DNA from: an uncultured Bacteroidales bacterium
GTDB taxonomy: Bacteria > Bacteroidota > Bacteroidia > Bacteroidales > Bacteroidaceae
Direction of reading: 5' to 3'
DNA length: 64,000 nucleotides
Assembly (NCBI GenBank): GCA_947303715.1
Contig: CAMYYY010000005.1
Location: 15,124 to 79,123 of the forward strand
Below, piece by piece: positions 46,316-54,820 of the stretch. The notes beneath the pieces were generated by a model that saw only the letters and a program-made list of their open reading frames with translations, made no database searches and was not told where the DNA came from. The position numbers and the translations under genes are program-made. Positions within the stretch are counted from its first letter, which is position 1, and each line of letters starts with the position of its first letter.

Positions 46316-46747
46316 TTACTGCACGGGATAGAGGCTGCTCTTGACGTTCTGGAACTTGGCGTTGGCGATGGCGCGCTTCAGCTTCGGGCTCTGACGCCAG
46401 CGGATGCCCACGCCCTTAATGTACGTGCCCGGATCGAACGCGTCCGTGGGGATGACGGACTGGGCGAAACACTTGCTCTTGACGTTCGCCTCGATGATGC
46501 CCAGGTCGGTGACGCCGTCCTTGAGGTCGCACATCTGCCCCGCCAGAAGATGCTCGCGCAGATGCATACCCATGGCGCTGACGACGGCCACGATGTCGGC
46601 ACGCGTGCACGTGGTGTCACGCTCGATGGCCTGCACAATCTGGACGGGCGTCAGCGACTGCTCGCTGTAGGCGCGGTTGCAGGCATAGTCCACACCCTCG
46701 GCACCCTTCGGGTTACTGCACCCGACAACTTTATACTTGATAGACAT
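46316..46747 (-). CDS. Bacteroidales HU-like DNA-binding protein (paralog 1)
   Basis: 143 aa. MSIKYKVVGCSNPKGAEGVDYACNRA...TRADIVAVVSAM... aligns with the two neighbours. Confidence 0.75.
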   Translation of the reverse strand: MSIKYKVVGCSNPKGAEGVDYACNRAYSEQSLTPVQIVQAIERDTTCTRADIVAVVSAMGMHLREHLLAGQMCDLKDGVTDLGIIEANVKSKCFAQSVIPTDAFDPGTYIKGVGIRWRQSPKLKRAIANAKFQNVKSSLYPVQ

Positions 46748-46753
46748 AGGGGA

Positions 46754-46787
46754 AATTAGGAATTAGGAATTAGGAATTAGGAATTGG
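46754..46787. repeat. (AATTAGG)n heptamer spacer
   Basis: Lies directly upstream of the HU paralog 1 start. A second array at 47317-47352 sits upstream of paralog 2, and an inverted short copy at 36308-36321. Confidence 0.9.
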
Positions 46788-46875
46788 CAGCCTCCCCCTT
46801 ACCCCTCCTGAAGGAGGGGGGACTGATTACTACCGCTCGGGTCCCCTTCCCTTTAGGGGAGGGCTGGGGTGAGGC
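46788..46875 (+). repeat. GC-rich double-hairpin element, copy 1
   Basis: CAGCCTCCCCCTTACCCCTCCTGAAGGAGGGGGGACTGATTACTACCGCTCGGGTCCCCTTCCCTTTAGGGGAGGGCTGGGGTGAGGC. Confidence 0.85.
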
Positions 46876-46896
46876 TTCGGGGAGAGAGGCTATTCG

Positions 46897-47313
46897 TCAG
46901 GACATCAGCTCCGAGGGGTCGCGGCGCAGGGTGGCGTAGCGGCGGATGTACTTCTTCAGGTCGGCACTGGGCTGGAAGGCCACGCGGTAGCCCTTGATGT
47001 AGCTCTGCGGACGGAAGCCGTCCGTGGGGATGGCCGACTGGGCGAAGCACTTGCTCTTGAGCGAGGGACGGAACGAGCCGAAGTTCTGCATCGTCACCGT
47101 ACGGCCCTGCAGGATGCCCTGCTCAATCTCGTAGATGTAGGCGCTGATGACGGCCACCACGTCCGCTTCGGTGACGGTGGTGGAATGGCTGACGTCGGCA
47201 GCCAGCTCTTTCAGGCTGTACGTGCCCGACTTGGTGGCGCGGTTGCAGGCGTACTCGACACCCTCCGCACCCTTCGGGTTCGTGCACCCGACAACTTTGT
47301 AATGGATAGGCAT
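46897..47313 (-). CDS. Bacteroidales HU-like DNA-binding protein (paralog 2)
   Basis: 138 aa. MPIHYKVVGCTNPKGAEGVEYACNRA...TEADVVAVISAY... Confidence 0.75.
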   Translation of the reverse strand: MPIHYKVVGCTNPKGAEGVEYACNRATKSGTYSLKELAADVSHSTTVTEADVVAVISAYIYEIEQGILQGRTVTMQNFGSFRPSLKSKCFAQSAIPTDGFRPQSYIKGYRVAFQPSADLKKYIRRYATLRRDPSELMS

Positions 47314-47355
47314 AATGGAAATTAGGAATTAGGAATTTGGAATTAGGAATTATGA

Positions 47356-47443
47356 GCCTCACCCCAGCCCTCCCCTAAAGGGAAGGGAGCGCGAGCGGAA
47401 GTAATTAGTCCCCCCTCCTTCAGGAGGGGACGGGGGAGGCTTG
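47356..47443 (-). repeat. GC-rich double-hairpin element, copy 2 (inverted relative to copy 1)
   Basis: Its reverse complement matches 46788-46875 with roughly 10 mismatches. It overlaps the last codons of HU paralog 3. Confidence 0.85.
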
Positions 47444-47839
47444 GTCGGCGAGTTCGACGGTGGCGTTGTCGGCCATCCAGCGGCGGATGCCGATGAAGGG
47501 GATGAAGCGCAGGCGGAAGCCCTTGATGATGGTCTGCACGCGGAAGCCGGGCTGCTGCACCGTCTCGGCAGGCGTCAGCCGCGAGTCGACGTTGATGAAG
47601 AAGCGCCCCAGGCCGCGGTACTCCACCGAGCAGCCCTCGAGCAGACGGCGCTTGGTGTGCTCGATGAGGGCCTCCATGGCCGCCGCCACGTCGGCACGCG
47701 TCAGCGAACAGCTGTGGGCGATGTCGTCAGCCATCATGTCGAACGTGTAGAGCCCCGCCGACATGTGCTGCGCGGTCACCCCCGCGCCCCCGGCCTTGCG
47801 GGGATTGGTGTTGTGGTTGAGAATGCATTTCAGTGACAT
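47420..47839 (-). CDS. Bacteroidales HU-like DNA-binding protein (paralog 3, most divergent)
   Basis: 139 aa. ...NTNPRKAGGAGVTAQH...LTRADVAAAMEAL... has the same layout as paralogs 1 and 2. Confidence 0.65.
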   Translation of the reverse strand: MSLKCILNHNTNPRKAGGAGVTAQHMSAGLYTFDMMADDIAHSCSLTRADVAAAMEALIEHTKRRLLEGCSVEYRGLGRFFINVDSRLTPAETVQQPGFRVQTIIKGFRLRFIPFIGIRRWMADNATVELADQASPVPS

Positions 47840-48138
47840 GGCTTTGTTGGGTGTGTCAAGAAGTTGTTTTTTTTTATGAACAGAGAAGAGGATATATGGC
47901 GGTGGCGGGAAAGAAGAGAAATTTTGGAACGTACTTCAGGAAAATCCAAAGCTGCATCTGAACGTTCCTGAGCGCGGCGGCGAAGTGGGAGGCGGCACGC
48001 GCGGCCCGCGCCGCATTACGTCATGCCCTCCATATATATAGTATCCCGAAAAAATCGAAAAATTACGATTTTACCCCATTTTTTTCAACTTTTTTCAAAA
48101 TAGCACTCACAGCGCCTTCTCGCCGGGGGGGGCGTCGC

Positions 48139-48333
48139 GGTATCAGGTATCACGGTATCACGGTATCACACAGACACCCTCACTTTCGCCGCCCCTGTTT
48201 CTATAGGTGGTTTATATTATATATTTATATCAAAGAAAAAAGAGAAATACAAAGAGAACAAAGAAAGTAAAAAAGGGTGAAACGGGTATCATAGGTGTCT
48301 GCGTGATACCGTGATACCTGATACCGTGATACC
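48139..48333. repeat. 40-bp inverted repeats built from (GGTATCAC)n, flanking a 115-bp AT-rich spacer
   Basis: The left arm (48139-48178) is GGTATCAGGTATCACGGTATCACGGTATCACACAGACACC. The reverse complement of the right arm (48294-48333) is GGTATCACGGTATCAGGTATCACGGTATCACGCAGACACC. Confidence 0.85.
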
Positions 48334-48698
48334 CCCCACACCCCGTCATCCCTGCCGTCAGCCTGTCGGCTGTCCATCCTGTTATAGACATCGTTGAGAT
48401 CGACCACATAAATCTGCAAGCAGAGGTCACGTATCTGGCATGAAATAACTCAAATATCAGCATATTTATGAACTTTTATTGTTGATGTTCAAATTTATTG
48501 TGTAACTTTGTGTGCAAAATATGACAAATTGAATAATACCGTCAATTTTGCAAAAGGAAAATAGTTAATGTACACATCAACCGCATCAAAACGATTTTCG
48601 GCAGAGAAAGAGGCAAGTCTATTGAATGGCTATAAGAAAAGATTGACCGCAATACTAGAAATAATTGCAGTATGATAATCCATAAAAAGTAGTAGGAG

Positions 48699-50042
48699 AT
48701 GACAAAATACAGCGCAAATAATATAATTAACAAGAATTCGAAAGCTTATCATGACATCGTCAGTTTTCAAAAGACACTCGGAGATATTATAGATGAGAAC
48801 AGATGTGATGAAAGTCAATATCCTATCATCCTATTTCCTAATAGTTTAGTGGATTACATTGATGAATTTCGTGACCTTGATCCTGACAAATATCTTTCTG
48901 TTGGAAATATTATGAACTTCATTATTAAAAATGGCGAAGATACAGAAACGATACAGAACGATTGGCAAAAGTATAAGAACGAGCCAATAGTACCTACATT
49001 ATACGTCCCAAGGCCCAGAACTCCCCAAAAGAAAGTTGCGCATAAACATGAGGTGCTCACCAAACAAAAGGAAGAAATTAAAGTATTCCGTCCTGGAGGT
49101 TGTTTGATCTTGTCAAGTTTGTTATTTCTCATTTTGTTAGTTATGACTATCGCAAACAAAGATGCGGGCTATATTCTATATTTCCTTTTGTGGATTCCGG
49201 CAATACTTTTAGGTGTAGCACAGGAGGGATTGGGTGAAAAAATCAAAAAAACAGTATTTCGAAAACGAAGCAAAGAGGACATTAAACGTGATGAAGAAAA
49301 AGCGGAATTCGATTATCAGCAGCAAATGGATATATTCGAAGAAGATTACCAAAAACAATTAGAATACAACAAAAAACTGCCCACTTTGATAAAGCAATAT
49401 GAGGAGGAATATGAGATAGAGAAAGAAAAATTTCAAAAAAAGATAGAAGAACGAGAGGATTATTGGAATAAACTACCAATATTAATTGACAAGGAATTCT
49501 GCCGTGCATTTTCTTGCATGATATTGGAAAAAATATCTACGCAGGTTGAGTATAAACGCATAGACCAAGAAAACATGCCTCAAAAAGGTGCAACAGAGGA
49601 TACACTTTTTTATGCCCTCATGAAATATGGAGTGACAGACATTAAAACAGATGTGTTTGTCAATGATTATTACCCAGATATAGCAATCATTGGATGTGGC
49701 TATATGATTGATATAGAAATAGATGAACCTTACACCCATAAAACAAAGAGACTTACTCATTACATAGGATGCGGAGATGAGGAACGTAATGCCAAATTCC
49801 AAGAGACGGGAGCATTTGTTATCCGTTTCTCTGAAGAACAAATAACTAATAATTTGGGTACATGTGTAGAAATTGTATCCAAAATCCAGGGTTTTGCAAA
49901 GACTGGTAATTGTATTTATTTGAATGAAGTTCAAAAGTTGTACTATTCAATAGCTCAAGATCGTTGGACTAAAGAAGATGCACGATGTTATATGATAGAA
50001 GACAGTAGAGAAAAACAAAAAAGAAAAGAAAATGGGAACTGA
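48699..50042 (+). CDS. Membrane-anchored protein with C-terminal DUF559/Vsr-like PD-(D/E)xK endonuclease domain
   Basis: 447 aa. It has two TM helices (GGCLILSSLLFLILLVMTIA, GYILYFLLWIPAILLGVA) and an E/K-rich coiled coil. The C-terminus is TEDTLFYALMKYG...YYPDIAII...IDIEIDEPYTH...ERNAKFQETGAFVIRFSEEQI. It lies in the AT-rich island. Confidence 0.5.
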   Translation: MTKYSANNIINKNSKAYHDIVSFQKTLGDIIDENRCDESQYPIILFPNSLVDYIDEFRDLDPDKYLSVGNIMNFIIKNGEDTETIQNDWQKYKNEPIVPTLYVPRPRTPQKKVAHKHEVLTKQKEEIKVFRPGGCLILSSLLFLILLVMTIANKDAGYILYFLLWIPAILLGVAQEGLGEKIKKTVFRKRSKEDIKRDEEKAEFDYQQQMDIFEEDYQKQLEYNKKLPTLIKQYEEEYEIEKEKFQKKIEEREDYWNKLPILIDKEFCRAFSCMILEKISTQVEYKRIDQENMPQKGATEDTLFYALMKYGVTDIKTDVFVNDYYPDIAIIGCGYMIDIEIDEPYTHKTKRLTHYIGCGDEERNAKFQETGAFVIRFSEEQITNNLGTCVEIVSKIQGFAKTGNCIYLNEVQKLYYSIAQDRWTKEDARCYMIEDSREKQKRKENGN

Positions 50043-50889
50043 CACGTTATATATAATTGGTAACGGATTTGATCGCCATCATGAAATCAAATCAAGTTAT
50101 TTGGATTTCAAAGAATGGTTAAACATCAACAATCATCCATTATTTGAAAAAGCAGATTTGGCATTTAGAAACAATACCGAATTCTGGAGTGATATGGAAA
50201 CACAGCTTGGGCATTTGGACACAGAGCAGTTTCATAAAGATAATTTCAAAGAAATAAGTTTACCTGCAAATAAGGATTTCTACTTTAGCGACTTTCAAAA
50301 TCATTCATCGGAGAAGGCATTAAGAATAATGGTTGAAGAGTTCATTGAGAATCTTAAGCTGTGGGTTCTTTCCTTTGATTATTCCTATGTGAAAGCTGAT
50401 GTCAGTCTCAATAAAAATGCATTCTTCATTACGTTCAACTATACTGATACATTGGAAACGTGTTATGGAGTGCCCAATAATCAAATCCTTTATATACATG
50501 GGAGAGCAAACTCTAATGATAAGCTTATTTTAGGTAGCGGTGTAAGTTCTGGAGACATACTTGAAAATGTTTTTTGTGGTGAATATACAGGTGATGAAGA
50601 TTTTGACAATCTGATTATGGAAGCGGGAAAACTAAAGAAACCTGTTTATCCGATTATACATAAGAATTCTCAGGTTTTCAAGAAACATAATGAACTTGAA
50701 AAAATAACCGTTATTGGATTTTCGTTTTCAGAAATAGATATCCCGTATTTGGAACGTCTAAATTCTCTAAATCCACAGGTTGCAAAATGGAATTTGTGTT
50801 TTCACACATTTGGGGATTTGCGTAGAATTGTCAAGTTCATAAAAACGAGTGGAATATCATGCGACAGAGTGCAGTTGAATTGTTTTTAA
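50032..50889 (+). CDS. AbiH-family abortive-infection protein
   Basis: 285 aa. The N-terminus TLYIIGNGFDRHHEIKSSYLDFKEWL is the AbiH signature. The start overlaps the upstream gene by 11 nt. Confidence 0.7.
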   Translation: MGTDTLYIIGNGFDRHHEIKSSYLDFKEWLNINNHPLFEKADLAFRNNTEFWSDMETQLGHLDTEQFHKDNFKEISLPANKDFYFSDFQNHSSEKALRIMVEEFIENLKLWVLSFDYSYVKADVSLNKNAFFITFNYTDTLETCYGVPNNQILYIHGRANSNDKLILGSGVSSGDILENVFCGEYTGDEDFDNLIMEAGKLKKPVYPIIHKNSQVFKKHNELEKITVIGFSFSEIDIPYLERLNSLNPQVAKWNLCFHTFGDLRRIVKFIKTSGISCDRVQLNCF

Positions 50890-51026
50890 AGTGAGAGCAT
50901 ATGACGAACGAGATATTCATCATAGAAGTAGACTCCGATGGGGTAATCGCAAATCACAAGGACATGCACTTCGATAGATTTCAGGCAATCGACAGGGTGT
51001 AAAACGTTATAAATTAAAAGAATACT

Positions 51027-52568
51027 ATGGCACTAGCAATAAACATAGAAGACCTGCTGAACAAGCAGAAAATTGAATCCAACAGGATAGAATTCAAGAA
51101 AGGTTGGAATCCGGCAAGCATATATCATAGTGTATGTGCTTTCGCAAATGATTTCGAAGATCTTGGCGGTGGATACATACTCGTGGGCGTAGATTGTGAT
51201 AATACAGGTAGGGCAATCCGTCCTGTAGAAGGAGTTCCCGTTGAGAAGATTGACGGTATCCTTCAGGAGATGGTGGGCTATAACAATAAGTTGTCTCCAT
51301 ACTACATGCCCAGGACTAGCGTTGAGGACGTGGATGGTCGGGAGGTGCTGGTGATATGGTGTCCTGCGGGCATCAATAGACCTTACTCTGTGACTGAAAA
51401 TGTAACGGCAAAGAGCGGCAGTAAGGATTACTTCTACGTCCGTAGTGGGACGAGTAGCATTATCGCTAAGGGTGATGTGCTTGACGAATTACGTGAGTTA
51501 GCCAGTCGTGTTCCCTTCGATGAGCGTGGAAATCCGGATATTACGGTGGAGGACATCTCCACGATTCTTTTGCGCGAATACTTGGTGAAGGTGGGTAGCA
51601 AACTGGCCAATGAACTATATCAGCGACCCTTGAATGAAATCTTGGAGCAGATGGACTTGTTTGTGGGCCCAACGGAAAACAGAATGCTGAGAAATGTGGC
51701 GGCGATGATGTTCTGCGAGGATCCATGCAAGTTTTTCAAACGGACACAGGTTGAGATAGTTTTTTTTCCTGAAGGGAGACTTAAGAACCCTAACAGCCTA
51801 TACGAGGGACCGGTGATAACTGGCTCTGTGACGCAGATTATCAATCGCACACTTGAATACCTGAACCGTATGTTGGTGATGCAGACGGTCGTCAAGCCCA
51901 AAGATGATAACCGTAGTCAGAAGTTCTTTACATACCCCTATCAGGCATTGGAAGAAAGTGTCACGAATTCGCTTTATCACAGAGATTATCGCGAATGGGA
52001 ACCTGTAGTGATTACAGTTGAGCCACAGGGAATTACCATCCAGAATGTGGGCGGTCCTGACCGAAGTATATCAAAAGCAGACATAGAGCGGGGTGAACTA
52101 TTCATTTCGAAACGCTACCGTAACCGCAGACTAGGCGAATACTTGAAGGAACTGGATTTGACGGAAGGTAGAAGCACTGGAATCCCAACCATTCAGAACG
52201 AGTTAAAGGAAAACGGCTCTCCACGTGCTATAGTAGTAACTGATGAAGACCGCACTTTTTTCCGCATCACTATCCCATGTCATGAATTAGCCGGCAACAT
52301 CATCGCAGACATTGCAAGCAAGGACAATTCACAAAAGGGTTCACAAAAAGATTCACAAAAGAGTTCACAAAAGAATCAGAATTCACAAATGATTATGGAT
52401 ATGATTCGACTGAACCCGAATGTGACTACTTCTGATATGGCAGAAAAGATTGGCATTTCACGCCGCACTATTGCAAAGATTACAAACAAGCTTCAAACTG
52501 AAGGTGTAATACGTCGCGTCGGAGCTCGAAAAGACGGTCATTGGGAAGTTATTGACAGAGAAAATTAA
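51027..52568 (+). CDS. Schlafen/AlbA_2-type (divergent AAA) + HATPase_c_4-like + C-terminal winged-HTH protein
   Basis: 513 aa. The N-terminus is LLNKQKIESNRIEFKKGWNP...CAFANDFEDLGGGYILVGV, and the mid region has SVTNSLYHRDY. An SQKGSQKDSQKSSQKNQNSQ linker precedes the HTH MAEKIGISRRTIAKITNKLQTEGVIRRVG. Confidence 0.75.
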   Translation: MALAINIEDLLNKQKIESNRIEFKKGWNPASIYHSVCAFANDFEDLGGGYILVGVDCDNTGRAIRPVEGVPVEKIDGILQEMVGYNNKLSPYYMPRTSVEDVDGREVLVIWCPAGINRPYSVTENVTAKSGSKDYFYVRSGTSSIIAKGDVLDELRELASRVPFDERGNPDITVEDISTILLREYLVKVGSKLANELYQRPLNEILEQMDLFVGPTENRMLRNVAAMMFCEDPCKFFKRTQVEIVFFPEGRLKNPNSLYEGPVITGSVTQIINRTLEYLNRMLVMQTVVKPKDDNRSQKFFTYPYQALEESVTNSLYHRDYREWEPVVITVEPQGITIQNVGGPDRSISKADIERGELFISKRYRNRRLGEYLKELDLTEGRSTGIPTIQNELKENGSPRAIVVTDEDRTFFRITIPCHELAGNIIADIASKDNSQKGSQKDSQKSSQKNQNSQMIMDMIRLNPNVTTSDMAEKIGISRRTIAKITNKLQTEGVIRRVGARKDGHWEVIDREN

Positions 52569-52581
52569 GAACAAAGGAAGC

Positions 52582-52700
52582 ATGGATGTGTTATTAGGAA
52601 ACAAAAACTAAGAAATACGTGACGAACAGGATATACGTCAACGACAATTGGCGGATATGCTGGATATAGATGTACCTATGTTCAACAGACAATCATGGGT
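52582..52700 (+). pseudogene. Decayed XRE-family HTH gene (in-frame stop, truncated after helix 3)
   Basis: It reads MDVLLGNKN*EIRDEQDIRQRQLADMLDIDVPMFNRQSW, with TAA at 52609-52611. HTH_3-like similarity ends where the composition switches back to GC-rich at about 52700. Confidence 0.5.
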
Positions 52701-52776
52701 CGGGGTATGCCTCATGCCCCCCTCCGCTCAGGCCGGAAAATTGTGGAAAAAGTGTGGATAACTTTTGCAGGAATCG

Positions 52777-52831: not shown

Positions 52832-53248
52832 ATGGCACAGGATAACACTCTCGAAGGGGCAGCGATGACGATGGAAACGCTTCAGCTGATTGACGACTAT
52901 GAGACGCTCAAAGGCAAGTACGACGAACTGAAGAGAAAGTACGCGGCGTCGCGAAGCGAAAACGACGTGCTGCGCGAACAGATGGCGGCGCTGCACGAGC
53001 AGCAGGCCTACATGCTGCGCAACCCCCGGCCGTCGGCCGAGATGGAGCAGCAGATGGAGGCCCTCGCCGAACGCTGCGAAAAGGCAGAACGGCTGCTGGC
53101 GCTGCGCAACAGGGAACTGAGCGAGCTGCGGGCGGAACTGCAGCAGCGCACGGAGGCGCAGCAGACGGTGAACATCCACTCCGGAGGGCTGTACGTCAAC
53201 ACCCTCGACAAGCAGTTCAACGGCTTCAAGCCGGAACTGGTAAGCTAA
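52832..53248 (+). CDS. Coiled-coil hypothetical protein
   Basis: 138 aa with heptad-rich E/L/R/Q sequence and a promoter upstream. Preferred over the antisense ORF 52712-53257. Confidence 0.5.
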   Translation: MAQDNTLEGAAMTMETLQLIDDYETLKGKYDELKRKYAASRSENDVLREQMAALHEQQAYMLRNPRPSAEMEQQMEALAERCEKAERLLALRNRELSELRAELQQRTEAQQTVNIHSGGLYVNTLDKQFNGFKPELVS

Positions 53249-53277
53249 CACAAACACACAAAATCTGACACAACACT

Positions 53278-53817
53278 ATGGGCGACAGGATTTTCAACAT
53301 GGAAAAGGGTGCCATCTACATCGAGCACCTCGAGAACCAGGTCAACTACTTCACGACGGACAAGGTGCAGGTGGTCAACGCCTCGCCCTTGCCTCCCCCG
53401 GCCGAAACGGTCACACCTTCTCCCACTCCCACACCGCCGCTGACGCCGGAGGAGCGGACGCGGCAGAGCGTGCGCGACGCGCTCGGCACGATGGCGCGTA
53501 AGCTGCAGACGGAGGAGTTGAAGGACCTGCCCCGTACGGCCTTGTGGCAGGGCGTCTACCGCGTGCTGGAGGACCGCGGCATCGTCAAGGCCGAGGACTA
53601 TGCAGGGTTCGGACGGTACATCAACGCGCTGGAGGTGGAGGGGATGACGCTGGCCGACAACGGCAAGAGCATCAGCAAGACCGACGGCGGCATACTGAGG
53701 AAACCGCTGGCAGAGTGGAACCCGACGAGTTTCGACGGCCGGAAGAGCACGTACGACCGGTTTCACCTGGCCGCCACCACCTTCGACGAAATCCTCACAG
53801 CGTGTATGAAAAACTGA
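53278..53817 (+). CDS. Hypothetical protein with Pro/Thr-rich linker
   Basis: 179 aa with PLPPPAETVTPSPTPTPPLTPEE between two small domains. No family recognised. Confidence 0.45.
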   Translation: MGDRIFNMEKGAIYIEHLENQVNYFTTDKVQVVNASPLPPPAETVTPSPTPTPPLTPEERTRQSVRDALGTMARKLQTEELKDLPRTALWQGVYRVLEDRGIVKAEDYAGFGRYINALEVEGMTLADNGKSISKTDGGILRKPLAEWNPTSFDGRKSTYDRFHLAATTFDEILTACMKN

Positions 53818-53831
53818 GTAGACACGTAAAA

Positions 53832-53876
53832 GCGGTATCAGGTATCACGGTATCACGCGTAACACGCTGATACCGC
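53832..53876 (+). repeat. (GGTAWCAC)n array 4
   Basis: GCGGTATCAGGTATCACGGTATCACGCGTAACACGCTGATACCGC. The first 26 nt are identical to 48137-48162, and the ends form a 9-bp hairpin (GCGGTATCA/TGATACCGC). Confidence 0.85.
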
Positions 53877-53998
53877 AACGCACCACCCTCTCCCTCGTTC
53901 CCCCTCTTTGGGTGACGGGGGGGAGGTCTTTTTTTTCACACCCTCGGCTGAGGACGCCCCCCTCCTCACGGCCAAACTTGCGCTGGAACTAGGGCGAC

Positions 53999-54820
53999 AT
54001 GTACCGCAACGCCTGGGACAACGCTTCGTACTCGCAGGACTACATGAGCGACTCCACCTTCAGCGGACGCGTGAACCTCTTCCTCAACATCCTCGCCACG
54101 GGTACACCTGAGCAGGTGATGAAATTCTACGACAATCCCGAGAACGGACTGATTTCGCGCATCAGCATCTGCCCGATTGCCAATCAGGAATACGCCAGCA
54201 TACCCGTGTGGAGCGAGCTGACCGACGACGAACAGCGGGAGTTCAACAACGTGATGGACTATGCCGACGCCCTGACCTACACGACCGACGACGAAGGGGT
54301 GGAGAGCATCAAGCCACGCACGGACATCACCGACGGGATGCTCTTCATCCACCATCCGCTGGAGGCGTGGCTCGAAGAGAAACGCCTGCTGGCGCTGCGT
54401 ACCCAGGACCAGGCACTCGACCACTTCCGCAAACGCGAGGCCGTGAAGATGTTCCGTATGGCCATGGTATGTTACGGCTGTTTCAGCGGCAATCTGACCG
54501 ATGCAAACCGTCAGGACATCACCGACTTCTGCCTGTGGTGGGGCGAGCAGGACCTGAAGAACCTCACCGACCTATACGGAGAAATGGTTAAGGACACCAT
54601 GCAACGGAGCTACTCGAAAAAAGATGACATCTTTGCACGGCTGTCCGACACCTTCACGGCTGCCGACGTGGAAAAAGCCCGCACAGAGGCTCACATAGCC
54701 ACACCCACAAAGGTGATTGTCTATCGATGGAAAAAGGCGGGACTGATTGCGAAGGACGAGGAAAACAACCTGTACCGCAAACTCGCCGACAGTAACACGG
54801 TAACACCGGTAACACGGTAA
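53999..54820 (+). pseudogene. 5'-truncated DUF3987 (primase-associated helicase-like) gene, C-terminal half only
   Basis: 273 aa. LNILATGTPEQVMKFYDNPENGLISRISICPI and the C-terminal ...IFARLSDTFTAADVEKA...VIVYRWKKAGLI resemble the distal half of Bacteroidales DUF3987 proteins. No Walker-A region is present, and a TAG closes the frame at 53990. Confidence 0.5.

Follow-up and report, generated by a model that had tools for sequence, protein, structure and literature searches.

Abortive-infection protein AbiH of Lactococcus lactis is catalogued as a single-gene system in DefenseFinder and PADLOC, and this one gene is sufficient according to the account of Prevots 1996 given in PMC13064643. The family has been placed in the SIR2-like 'SIRim' group, and NAD+ depletion has been proposed as its mechanism (bioRxiv 10.1101/2024.09.18.613514; FEMS Microbiol Rev PMC13064643). 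SNIPE is a GIY-YIG nuclease that is encoded by one gene and anchored in the membrane; it cuts phage DNA while this is being injected, and is toxic once its anchor has been removed (bioRxiv 10.1101/2025.11.03.685801). In this study, we analyzed a 64,000-nucleotide (nt) stretch from an uncultured Bacteroidales bacterium (GenBank assembly GCA_947303715.1, contig CAMYYY010000005.1, positions 15,124 to 79,123; hereafter the window). In this stretch, an AbiH gene, open reading frame (ORF) B, directly follows ORF A, a gene for a putative membrane-anchored nuclease. A first-pass annotation had taken the two for a candidate two-gene abortive-infection system with translational coupling. We found that ORF A and AbiH are better explained as two independent single-gene modules in a defence hotspot that happen to be co-transcribed, a reading to which we give a probability of about 60%. 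ORF A, the more interesting object of the two, belongs to an unnamed family of considerable size, whose members are Vsr/DUF559-like nucleases with a membrane anchor.

Conservation of the ORF A-AbiH pair

ORF A encodes 447 amino acids (aa) on the forward strand (window positions 48699-50042), starting with ATG and ending with TGA at 50040-50042. ORF B encodes 285 aa on the same strand (50032-50889) and starts with ATG at 50032. The two genes share 11 nt, as the first-pass annotation had recorded. Only one other copy of the pair was found, at a locus designated L009, where the ORF A relative (P0002) has 82% and the AbiH protein 91% identity to the proteins of the window. L009 and the window share one 2.7-kb block (window 48402-51086) with about 90% DNA identity, and their flanks are unrelated. 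Therefore, the two copies have one origin, and the pair was moved once as a unit. The ORF A homologue of L009 stops at a TAA, 10 nt ahead of the ATG of AbiH. The window has lost this stop codon in an A-rich tract, and eight extra codons are read through; these last eight codons of ORF A are specific to the window. Translational coupling had been proposed from the overlap. The overlap is there, but it is not conserved, being replaced by a gap in L009, and the comparison of the two loci indicates that it is a recent accident, a stop-codon loss specific to the window.

The other full-length relatives of ORF A have 27-40% identity to it and are encoded at L001-4, L005-8, L010, L011, L012, L022-L027 and L190. 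AbiH was found beside full-length relatives in 0 of 13 other contexts. The relative with 40% identity (P0005; L190) has no ORF in the 520 nt downstream. P0006 has a trypsin-like gene upstream (a trypsin-like gene was seen at L011), P0007 has TPR genes downstream (seen at L010), and P0012 lies within a mobilisable element with an integrase and Mob_Pre (such an element is present at L001-4). P0016 stands alone, and P0008 and the six genome loci L022-L027 are likewise without AbiH. When the search was widened to ±6 kb, AbiH was absent from all 80 loci of ORF A-family genes in species-representative genomes, and an ORF A-like or C-domain-like gene was absent from all 80 metagenome loci of AbiH. 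Both families occur mostly without each other. Homologues of the two genes were never adjacent elsewhere, save for the near-identical copy in L009.

Taken together, an operon-like arrangement was observed in the window and in L009, and adjacency in independent lineages was not. A conserved two-gene system with ORF A as the partner of AbiH is not supported, since the pair is confined to the window and one copy of about 90% identity; rejecting it prevents a false entry in defence catalogues. The pairing had also been called undescribed, and in agreement with this, our literature search found no description of an AbiH and membrane-nuclease pairing or of a membrane-anchored DUF559 defence protein.

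We also compared the surroundings of AbiH genes related to ORF B. AbiH proteins with 74-78% identity to ORF B lie behind three unrelated kinds of upstream genes, which encode a 752-aa WG-repeat protein and a 106-aa ExoX-like_C protein (L013-16), zinc-ribbon proteins (L017-18) or an LRR protein (L104). At L019-L021, an AbiH with 53% identity lies behind an 802-aa kinase-reverse-transcriptase fusion (Pkinase-RVT_1), and DUF6939 and DarT are also among its surroundings. The N-domain, nuclease core and tail of ORF A were not detected in those upstream proteins, even at E≤10 with the HMMER filters switched off. The window and the close AbiH loci show 82-85% DNA similarity over a stretch that starts at 50030-50038, where the AbiH start codon lies, and extends to 50894-50929. 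Since the similarity is confined to the stretch from the start codon through the gene end, AbiH behaves as its own cassette. Among the immediate neighbours of AbiH, 83 of 143 are singletons. Recurrent neighbours such as CHAT and kinase-LRR proteins are typical conflict-system sensor proteins: CHAT-domain proteins are found near AbiH in L133, L170 and L181, Pkinase-LRR_5 proteins stand on either side of it in L131, and a PIN-TPR-GreABC protein is present in L169. A second AbiH is found in tandem in L110.

Within this AbiH clade, one neighbour alone is conserved, a small ORF that begins 11-12 nt after the AbiH stop and encodes 77-105 aa where intact. Its N-terminus, MANKIL[FI]IGVG[GS]AG, contains a glycine-rich nucleotide-binding-like motif, and the intact form in L013 and L103 opens with MANKILFIGVGGAG. 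The small ORF is intact in L013 (4455-4766), L103 (5667-5978), L104 (4245-4562), L102 (3630-3863) and L105 (736-1020), and frameshifted in L009 (3333-3497). In the window, a degenerate remnant of 33 codons is left (50901-51002, forward strand), shortened and with the glycine motif lost (IIEVDSDGV). No Pfam or NCBIfam match to the small ORF was found. The AbiH boundary at the start codon, together with this decaying small downstream ORF, is a concrete example of defence-gene shuffling.

Families and domain structure of the two proteins

ORF B had been called AbiH from its N-terminus, LYIIGNGFDRHHEIKSSYLDF, and profile searches confirmed this with a significant match to Pfam AbiH (PF14253; E 2.6e-46, 159.3 bits against a cut-off of 30.9) and to the PADLOC AbiH model (E 1.5e-22). 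The PF14253 match spans profile positions 1-256 of 260 and ORF B residues 6-253, and each of the 243 homologues at E≤1e-10 carries PF14253. In an alignment of 36 homologues, the invariant AbiH columns include L6, Y7, G10, N11, G12, D14, F135, N136, Y137, T138, T140 and H156. ORF B retains all of these residues, within the motifs G10-N11-G12, N136-Y137-T138-D139 and H156-G157. By motif comparison, the GNG, NYTD and HG motifs of AbiH may correspond to the SIR2 glycine motif (GAGxS), the TxNYD motif and the catalytic His, respectively. The AbiH profile gave only chance matches to membrane or coiled-coil segments among PDB sequences and did not reach SIR2 structures; the SIR2-like label is taken from the literature. 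The family had been described in the first pass as having no known mechanism. This stands insofar as NAD+ depletion is just a proposal, but the family has already been classed as SIR2-like 'SIRim'.

ORF B matches the profile of the single-gene AbiH system end to end and keeps GNGFD, FNYTxT and HG. Like the L. lactis protein, it sits on horizontally mobile DNA. Unlike that protein, which is reportedly 346 aa long, ORF B is about 60 residues shorter, is of Bacteroidota origin and lies in an operon-like array. The SIRim NADases, among which AbiH has been grouped in the literature by phylogeny and predicted structure, include ThsA, DSR1/2, SIR2-HerA and SPARSA; unlike these, ORF B has no fused sensor domain and no conserved partner. 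These results suggest that ORF B is an ordinary stand-alone member of the known AbiH family, whose SIR2-like placement has already been recognised.

ORF A was modelled with AlphaFold on an alignment of 16 full-length relatives (mean predicted local distance difference test (pLDDT) 84.5). The four-part layout proposed earlier, an N-domain, two transmembrane helices, a coiled coil of about 90 residues and a C-terminal block, was recovered in full. The N-terminal domain (residues 1-130; 48699-49088) consists of a helical part within residues 15-92 and a Pro-rich linker behind it, with Y41-P42, P47 and P99 invariant. It is followed by a membrane hairpin of two helices, residues 134-153 and 158-177 (49098-49229), connected by a 4-residue loop; these are the only two membrane-type segments found by Kyte-Doolittle hydropathy. 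Both flanks of the hairpin are net positive (+2 and +3). On this flank charge and the positive-inside rule, the N-domain and the C-terminal part are both predicted to be cytoplasmic. Residues 192-279 (49272-49535) form a long single helix or coiled coil with pLDDT 86-95, rich in E, K and Q, in which 55% of the residues are charged or Gln. The nuclease core (residues 295-385; 49581-49853) then leads to a helical tail (residues 386-447, helices 386-445; 49854-50039). The tail always goes with the nuclease core, as judged from co-occurrence of the tail hidden Markov model, and has F399, L408, W423 and R437 invariant.

The full-length model gave nothing below E 1.7 in a Foldseek search against PDB; it is a multi-domain model with a long helix, and the C-domain (residues 289-447) was then modelled alone. 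This model was of high confidence (pLDDT 90.8, pTM 0.84), with helices at positions 10-22 and 72-81 and strands at 40-44, 47-54 and 85-90. The core module, residues 298-378, has the order alpha-beta-beta-beta-alpha-beta. The best PDB matches of the C-domain were 3r3p, the Vsr-like catalytic domain of I-Bth0305I, and 3hrl, the DUF559 protein NGO0050 (both prob 0.99, TM-score 0.65-0.70 on the target). Hjc, Bax1, R2 endonuclease, RecU and Vsr followed with lower scores, and no PDB match reached E<1e-3. Against BFVD, a set of predicted viral structures, four matches annotated as endonuclease-like reached E≤1e-3 (E 2.2e-4 to 1e-3, prob 1.00), and entries for DUF559 and DNA mismatch endonuclease were ranked directly after these. 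The ORF A family profile gave only chance membrane and coiled-coil matches among PDB sequences and did not reach Vsr structures.

The Pfam match of ORF A itself to DUF559 (PF04480) weighs against a nuclease assignment, as it is sub-threshold (E 0.059, 13.7 bits against 20.6) and covers profile positions 69-104 only. The assignment therefore needs family-level and structural evidence. In Pfam searches, DUF559 was matched by 9 of the 16 full-length relatives at E≤0.1 and by 30 of the 47 relatives that share the C-module at E≤0.01 (best E 5.6e-6). Among these 47, the restriction-endonuclease-fold families MTES_1575, RAP and PDDEXK_1 were matched as well. DUF559 membership of ORF A is thus supported only transitively, through its relatives. 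Together with the AlphaFold model and the Foldseek matches, this supports a Vsr/DUF559-type restriction-endonuclease fold of the ORF A C-terminus, and the DUF559/Vsr-like fold claimed earlier is borne out in spite of the weak match of ORF A itself.

The motifs YYPDIAII, IDIEIDEPYTH and ERNAKFQETGAFVIRFSEEQI are the most conserved part of the ORF A family. Residues E300, D327, D338, E340, D342, E343, H354, D360, R363 and R376 are invariant in the 16 full-length relatives, and P-D, D-x-E-I-D-E-P-Y and H in the 47. A composite E-D-x-H-D motif has been described for I-Bth0305I and Vsr (PMC3239194). E300, D327, H354 and D360 of ORF A fit Vsr E25/D51/H69/D97 by order and spacing alone, not by superposition. 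Because its invariant acidic and His residues fit this motif, the C-domain looks catalytically competent, and we infer that ORF A has nuclease activity. ORF A shares the alpha-beta-beta-beta-alpha-beta core of the DUF559/Vsr fold (PF04480; 3HRL; 3R3P; E. coli Vsr 1CW0). Unlike those proteins, it carries D338-x-E340-x-D342-E343 as an additional acidic cluster as well as a dedicated 60-residue helical tail, and its fusion to a membrane hairpin and coiled coil is not a described DUF559 architecture.

The size of the ORF A family was examined by a profile search against 1.84 billion cluster representatives, with clusters formed at 50% identity. It contains 2,022 clusters at E≤1e-3, 1,752 at E≤1e-10 and 225 at E≤1e-30. 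Full coverage of the profile, N-domain included, is seen in only about 40-50 clusters. Far more relatives begin at about profile position 100 and consist of hairpin, coiled coil, nuclease and tail, and in others the nuclease and tail together are one module of a larger protein. The family is found at no fewer than 435 loci in species-representative genomes, mostly in Bacteroidota and Cyanobacteria. Among annotated plasmids, five cyanobacterial matches were found, all to the C-domain only and all labelled hypothetical, and no member was found in 50,697 phage records. The exact ORF A sequence (P0001) is not on record. PADLOC, NCBIfam and PHROGs contain no model matching ORF A, and Pfam gave no hit other than the weak DUF559 match.

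The immediate neighbours of ORF A-family genes are mixed, and no partner recurs among them; Mob_Pre, the most frequent family, accounts for 5 of 134. A subfamily of relatives, P0010-P0014 (66-70% mutual identity; L001-L004 and L023-L025), adjoins a Mob_Pre relaxase, and L001 and L003 additionally carry a tyrosine integrase and an HTH_3 gene. A small mobilisable element, present in Phocaeicola, Alistipes and Bacteroides assemblies, carries these relatives as cargo.

We compared ORF A with described membrane-associated defence. Both SNIPE and ORF A combine a membrane anchor, an elongated linker, a nuclease and a variable N-terminal region in one polypeptide, and in both the nuclease is the most conserved part; the nuclease of SNIPE is cytoplasmic, and the putative one of ORF A is predicted to be so from flank charge. 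Unlike SNIPE, ORF A has a Vsr/DUF559-like nuclease and not a GIY-YIG (T5orf172/MUG113) nuclease, has no DUF4041 by Pfam and shows no sequence relationship. The anchor of SNIPE is an N-terminal single pass, whereas that of ORF A is predicted to be a mid-protein hairpin with a cytoplasmic N-domain. From the missing DUF4041, the other nuclease fold and the other anchor position, ORF A is not a SNIPE family member. By analogy, the ORF A family may nevertheless be a SNIPE-like membrane-tethered nuclease. Zorya and Kiwa are membrane-associated defence systems that couple phage-entry detection to DNA targeting. ORF A shares with them the idea of a membrane component at which the entering phage is detected, with DNA targeting linked to it; unlike ORF A, they are conserved multi-gene systems with dedicated membrane complexes, and ORF A has no PADLOC match to their components. 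The ORF A family couples a membrane hairpin and a coiled-coil stalk to an apparently active Vsr/DUF559-type nuclease. Should ORF A act in defence by cleaving DNA at the membrane, the problem solved by SNIPE would have a second solution that is structurally independent of the first, and the family, if shown functional, would add a new variant to defence by membrane nucleases.

The variable slot and the competing explanations

ORF A, ORF B and a third gene (51027-52568) make up an AT-rich cargo segment of 4.4 kb (48283-52718), which fills a variable slot between the third of three HU-HIG genes and a conserved 138-aa gene. The composition profile gives a GC content of 33-47% for the segment against 60-65% for its flanks, and the segment was therefore horizontally acquired. 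No tRNA was found in the window, and no direct repeats of note flank the island. In the sister genomes (L182-L187), similarity to the window breaks off at 48282-48335 and sets in again at 52719-52720. In L182 and L185-187, the slot contains just one gene, for a 229-aa four-helix-bundle protein (23S rRNA IVP-type). In L183, it contains a 225-aa gene, an Eco57I-type gene and two large proteins of 676 and 363 aa without known identity. L184 has the L183-type genes plus an 834-aa T5orf172/MUG113 protein (GIY-YIG, possibly SNIPE-like). The three genes of the window are one among at least four alternative cargos in a variable, defence-flavoured slot. Since the slot otherwise holds defence-type genes, a defence-related role of ORF A and AbiH is supported by association, and we infer such a role for ORF A. 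The hotspot setting equally accounts for unrelated modules being packed side by side. The locus is a clean defence hotspot in a gut or rumen Bacteroidaceae lineage and a good place for mining further candidates.

Upstream of ORF A, TAACTTTG (48503-48510, forward strand) is a candidate promoter for ORF A and AbiH. It is the sole match to the Bacteroidetes -7 consensus TAnnTTTG in this region and, as this motif carries little information, weak evidence. The final 330 nt of ORF A and the spacer from AbiH to the following gene contain no TAnnTTTG match. Scans for sigma-70 promoters and terminators did not rise above shuffle expectation, with models unsuited to Bacteroidota. ORF A and AbiH are probably co-transcribed.

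These results are consistent with the following course of events. ORF A and AbiH would have become neighbours by cassette shuffling within horizontally acquired cargo, AbiH moving as a unit with its own start codon as the 5' boundary, and they would function independently. A phage cue would activate the SIR2-like AbiH enzyme, NAD+ would be degraded and infection aborted, by analogy with ThsA, DSR and SIR2-HerA; the putative NADase activity follows from the family placement and the mechanism proposed in the literature. In ORF A, the two-helix hairpin would hold the cytoplasmic N-terminal domain, whose variability would fit a targeting adaptor, and a coiled-coil stalk of about 13 nm would carry the Vsr/DUF559-type endonuclease. 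As in SNIPE, tethering may keep the nuclease off the nucleoid, so that it would cut only DNA entering at the membrane, through phage injection or conjugation.

However, several observations weigh against two independent modules. The pair is tightly packed on one strand in both copies, and this packing, together with the single promoter-like motif upstream of ORF A and none before AbiH, makes co-expression near-certain; the two genes have almost certainly also moved together at least once. Many contigs are short, and the absence of a partner from the available flank is not always informative. A same-strand ORF lies within 100 nt upstream in 51 of 72 AbiH loci, and AbiH may often depend on an upstream partner of variable kind. 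The immediate neighbours of ORF A-family genes include many housekeeping genes. The packing, the shared promoter-like motif and the transfer of one 2.7-kb block into two unrelated contexts would all be expected of a genuine but young, lineage-specific two-gene system, in which membrane-bound ORF A senses or processes phage DNA and activates, or is backed up by, the AbiH NADase. The small ORF normally behind AbiH has decayed here, as if another partner had replaced it, and SIR2 effectors usually have a partner, as in Thoeris, SIR2-HerA and pAgo. Such a system is unlikely, as no second independent pair was found in about 170 loci from either side and each family is overwhelmingly found without the other. 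In addition, the AbiH cassette boundary lies at the ATG, with other upstream genes in copies of 82-85% DNA identity, the overlap is not conserved, and L. lactis AbiH suffices alone. AbiH of this clade might also be a promoter-less plug-in effector wired to any upstream gene, be it for a membrane nuclease, a kinase-RT, a kinase-LRR, a CHAT protease or Zn-ribbon proteins; many sensors, ORF A among them, would then be interchangeable in front of a common SIR2-like executioner. The start codon is the exact point at which DNA similarity among AbiH copies sets in, the close same-strand upstream ORFs fit such wiring, and the neighbours include conflict-system sensors (CHAT, Pkinase-LRR_5, PIN-TPR-GreABC and Pkinase-RVT_1). 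But co-directional tight packing is normal in defence islands and in Bacteroidales and is no sign of functional linkage, and most of the neighbours, from naively called ORFs, occur just once, no family recurring among them. In about 30% of AbiH loci the gene upstream is divergent or distant, and AbiH works alone in Lactococcus, which leaves this explanation improbable.

A further explanation concerns ORF A alone, which might have a selfish or housekeeping function of a mobile element and merely hitch-hike beside AbiH, for example as a Vsr-like homing or nicking endonuclease, a DNA-processing factor anchored to a transfer apparatus or an entry-exclusion factor. Its best structural match is a homing endonuclease domain (3r3p), the P0010-P0014 subfamily adjoins Mob_Pre relaxases with an integrase, and the housekeeping neighbours of many family members and the missing PADLOC match point the same way. 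We consider a non-defence role doubtful, because a membrane hairpin with a stalk is not a homing-endonuclease feature and the slot in the window is otherwise filled with restriction or defence-type genes. The family is also absent from the phage records and represented on plasmids only by the five cyanobacterial C-domain matches, and entry exclusion is itself a form of defence. The most far-reaching alternative joins three propositions, namely that ORF A and AbiH are a young functional pair, that AbiH-type SIRim proteins are promoter-less plug-in cassettes, and that ORF A founds a SNIPE-like family. If this were true, ORF A would act at the site of phage DNA entry and, for example, release DNA ends or a signal that leads to NAD+ depletion by AbiH; whether paired or not, ORF A would found a new and widespread membrane-nuclease family on a different nuclease fold than SNIPE. 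We regard this combination as a long shot, and two independent single-gene modules remain the preferred explanation.

Other genes and features of the slot and its flanks

The third cargo gene (51027-52568, forward strand) encodes a 513-aa protein with Schlafen/AlbA_2, HATPase_c_4 and winged helix-turn-helix domains. It matches PF04326 (1e-13), PF13749 (8.8e-7) and HTH_24 (9.9e-8) in Pfam, and PHROG 12156 (4.8e-46), and is a putative DNA-binding regulator or sensor. By profile search, a Schlafen/AlbA_2-type gene was found near AbiH in 8 of 90 AbiH loci as compared with 0 of 91 ORF A-family loci. The eight correspond to about four independent contexts, in addition to the window (L013-15, L103, L125/126/143 and L137). 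The Schlafen/AlbA_2 gene may be a recurrent regulator or co-cargo of AbiH. We also considered it as a conserved backbone shared with L013, and this was rejected, as tblastn gave no similarity; the two are different members of one broad type. Within the gene, at 52327-52372, three tandem 12-nt ATTCACAAAAGG-like units encode the linker DSQKGSQKDSQKSSQK ahead of the winged helix-turn-helix. Right after it, at about 52590-52700, the sequence reads by eye like the remnant of an XRE/HTH_3-type gene (QLADMLDIDVPMFNRQ). This remnant echoes the intact HTH_3 gene behind the Schlafen-like gene in L013 and L014.

On the left side of the slot, an imperfect inverted repeat of GGTATCAC units has its arms at window positions 48127-48178 and 48294-48337. 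The arms are 36-40 nt long and 80-92% complementary, and the spacer of 115-139 nt is very AT-rich. Similarity to the sister genomes ends at the right arm of this repeat (48333-48335) in some of them and just before it (48282) in others. The repeat may serve in recombination, or it may be invertible or have a regulatory role. The slot is directly bordered by three tandem paralogous genes for HU-HIG proteins (Bacteroidales HU-like; 46316-47839, reverse strand), which are kept in all sister genomes and whose intergenic regions share short DNA similarity. One of them (47420-47839) has an identical product on 19 other contigs. To the right of the slot, at 52832-54820, lie the genes for the conserved 138-aa coiled-coil protein and for proteins of 179 and 273 aa, all without a Pfam match. 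In the sister genomes, these three genes are followed by one for a BT4734-like_N protein (770 aa). The conserved genes to the right of the slot, together with the BT4734-like_N protein, suggest that the whole region belongs to an integrated element. An RND pump is encoded near the slot, and proteins at least 90% identical to it are annotated from metagenome-assembled genomes of Bacteroidaceae.

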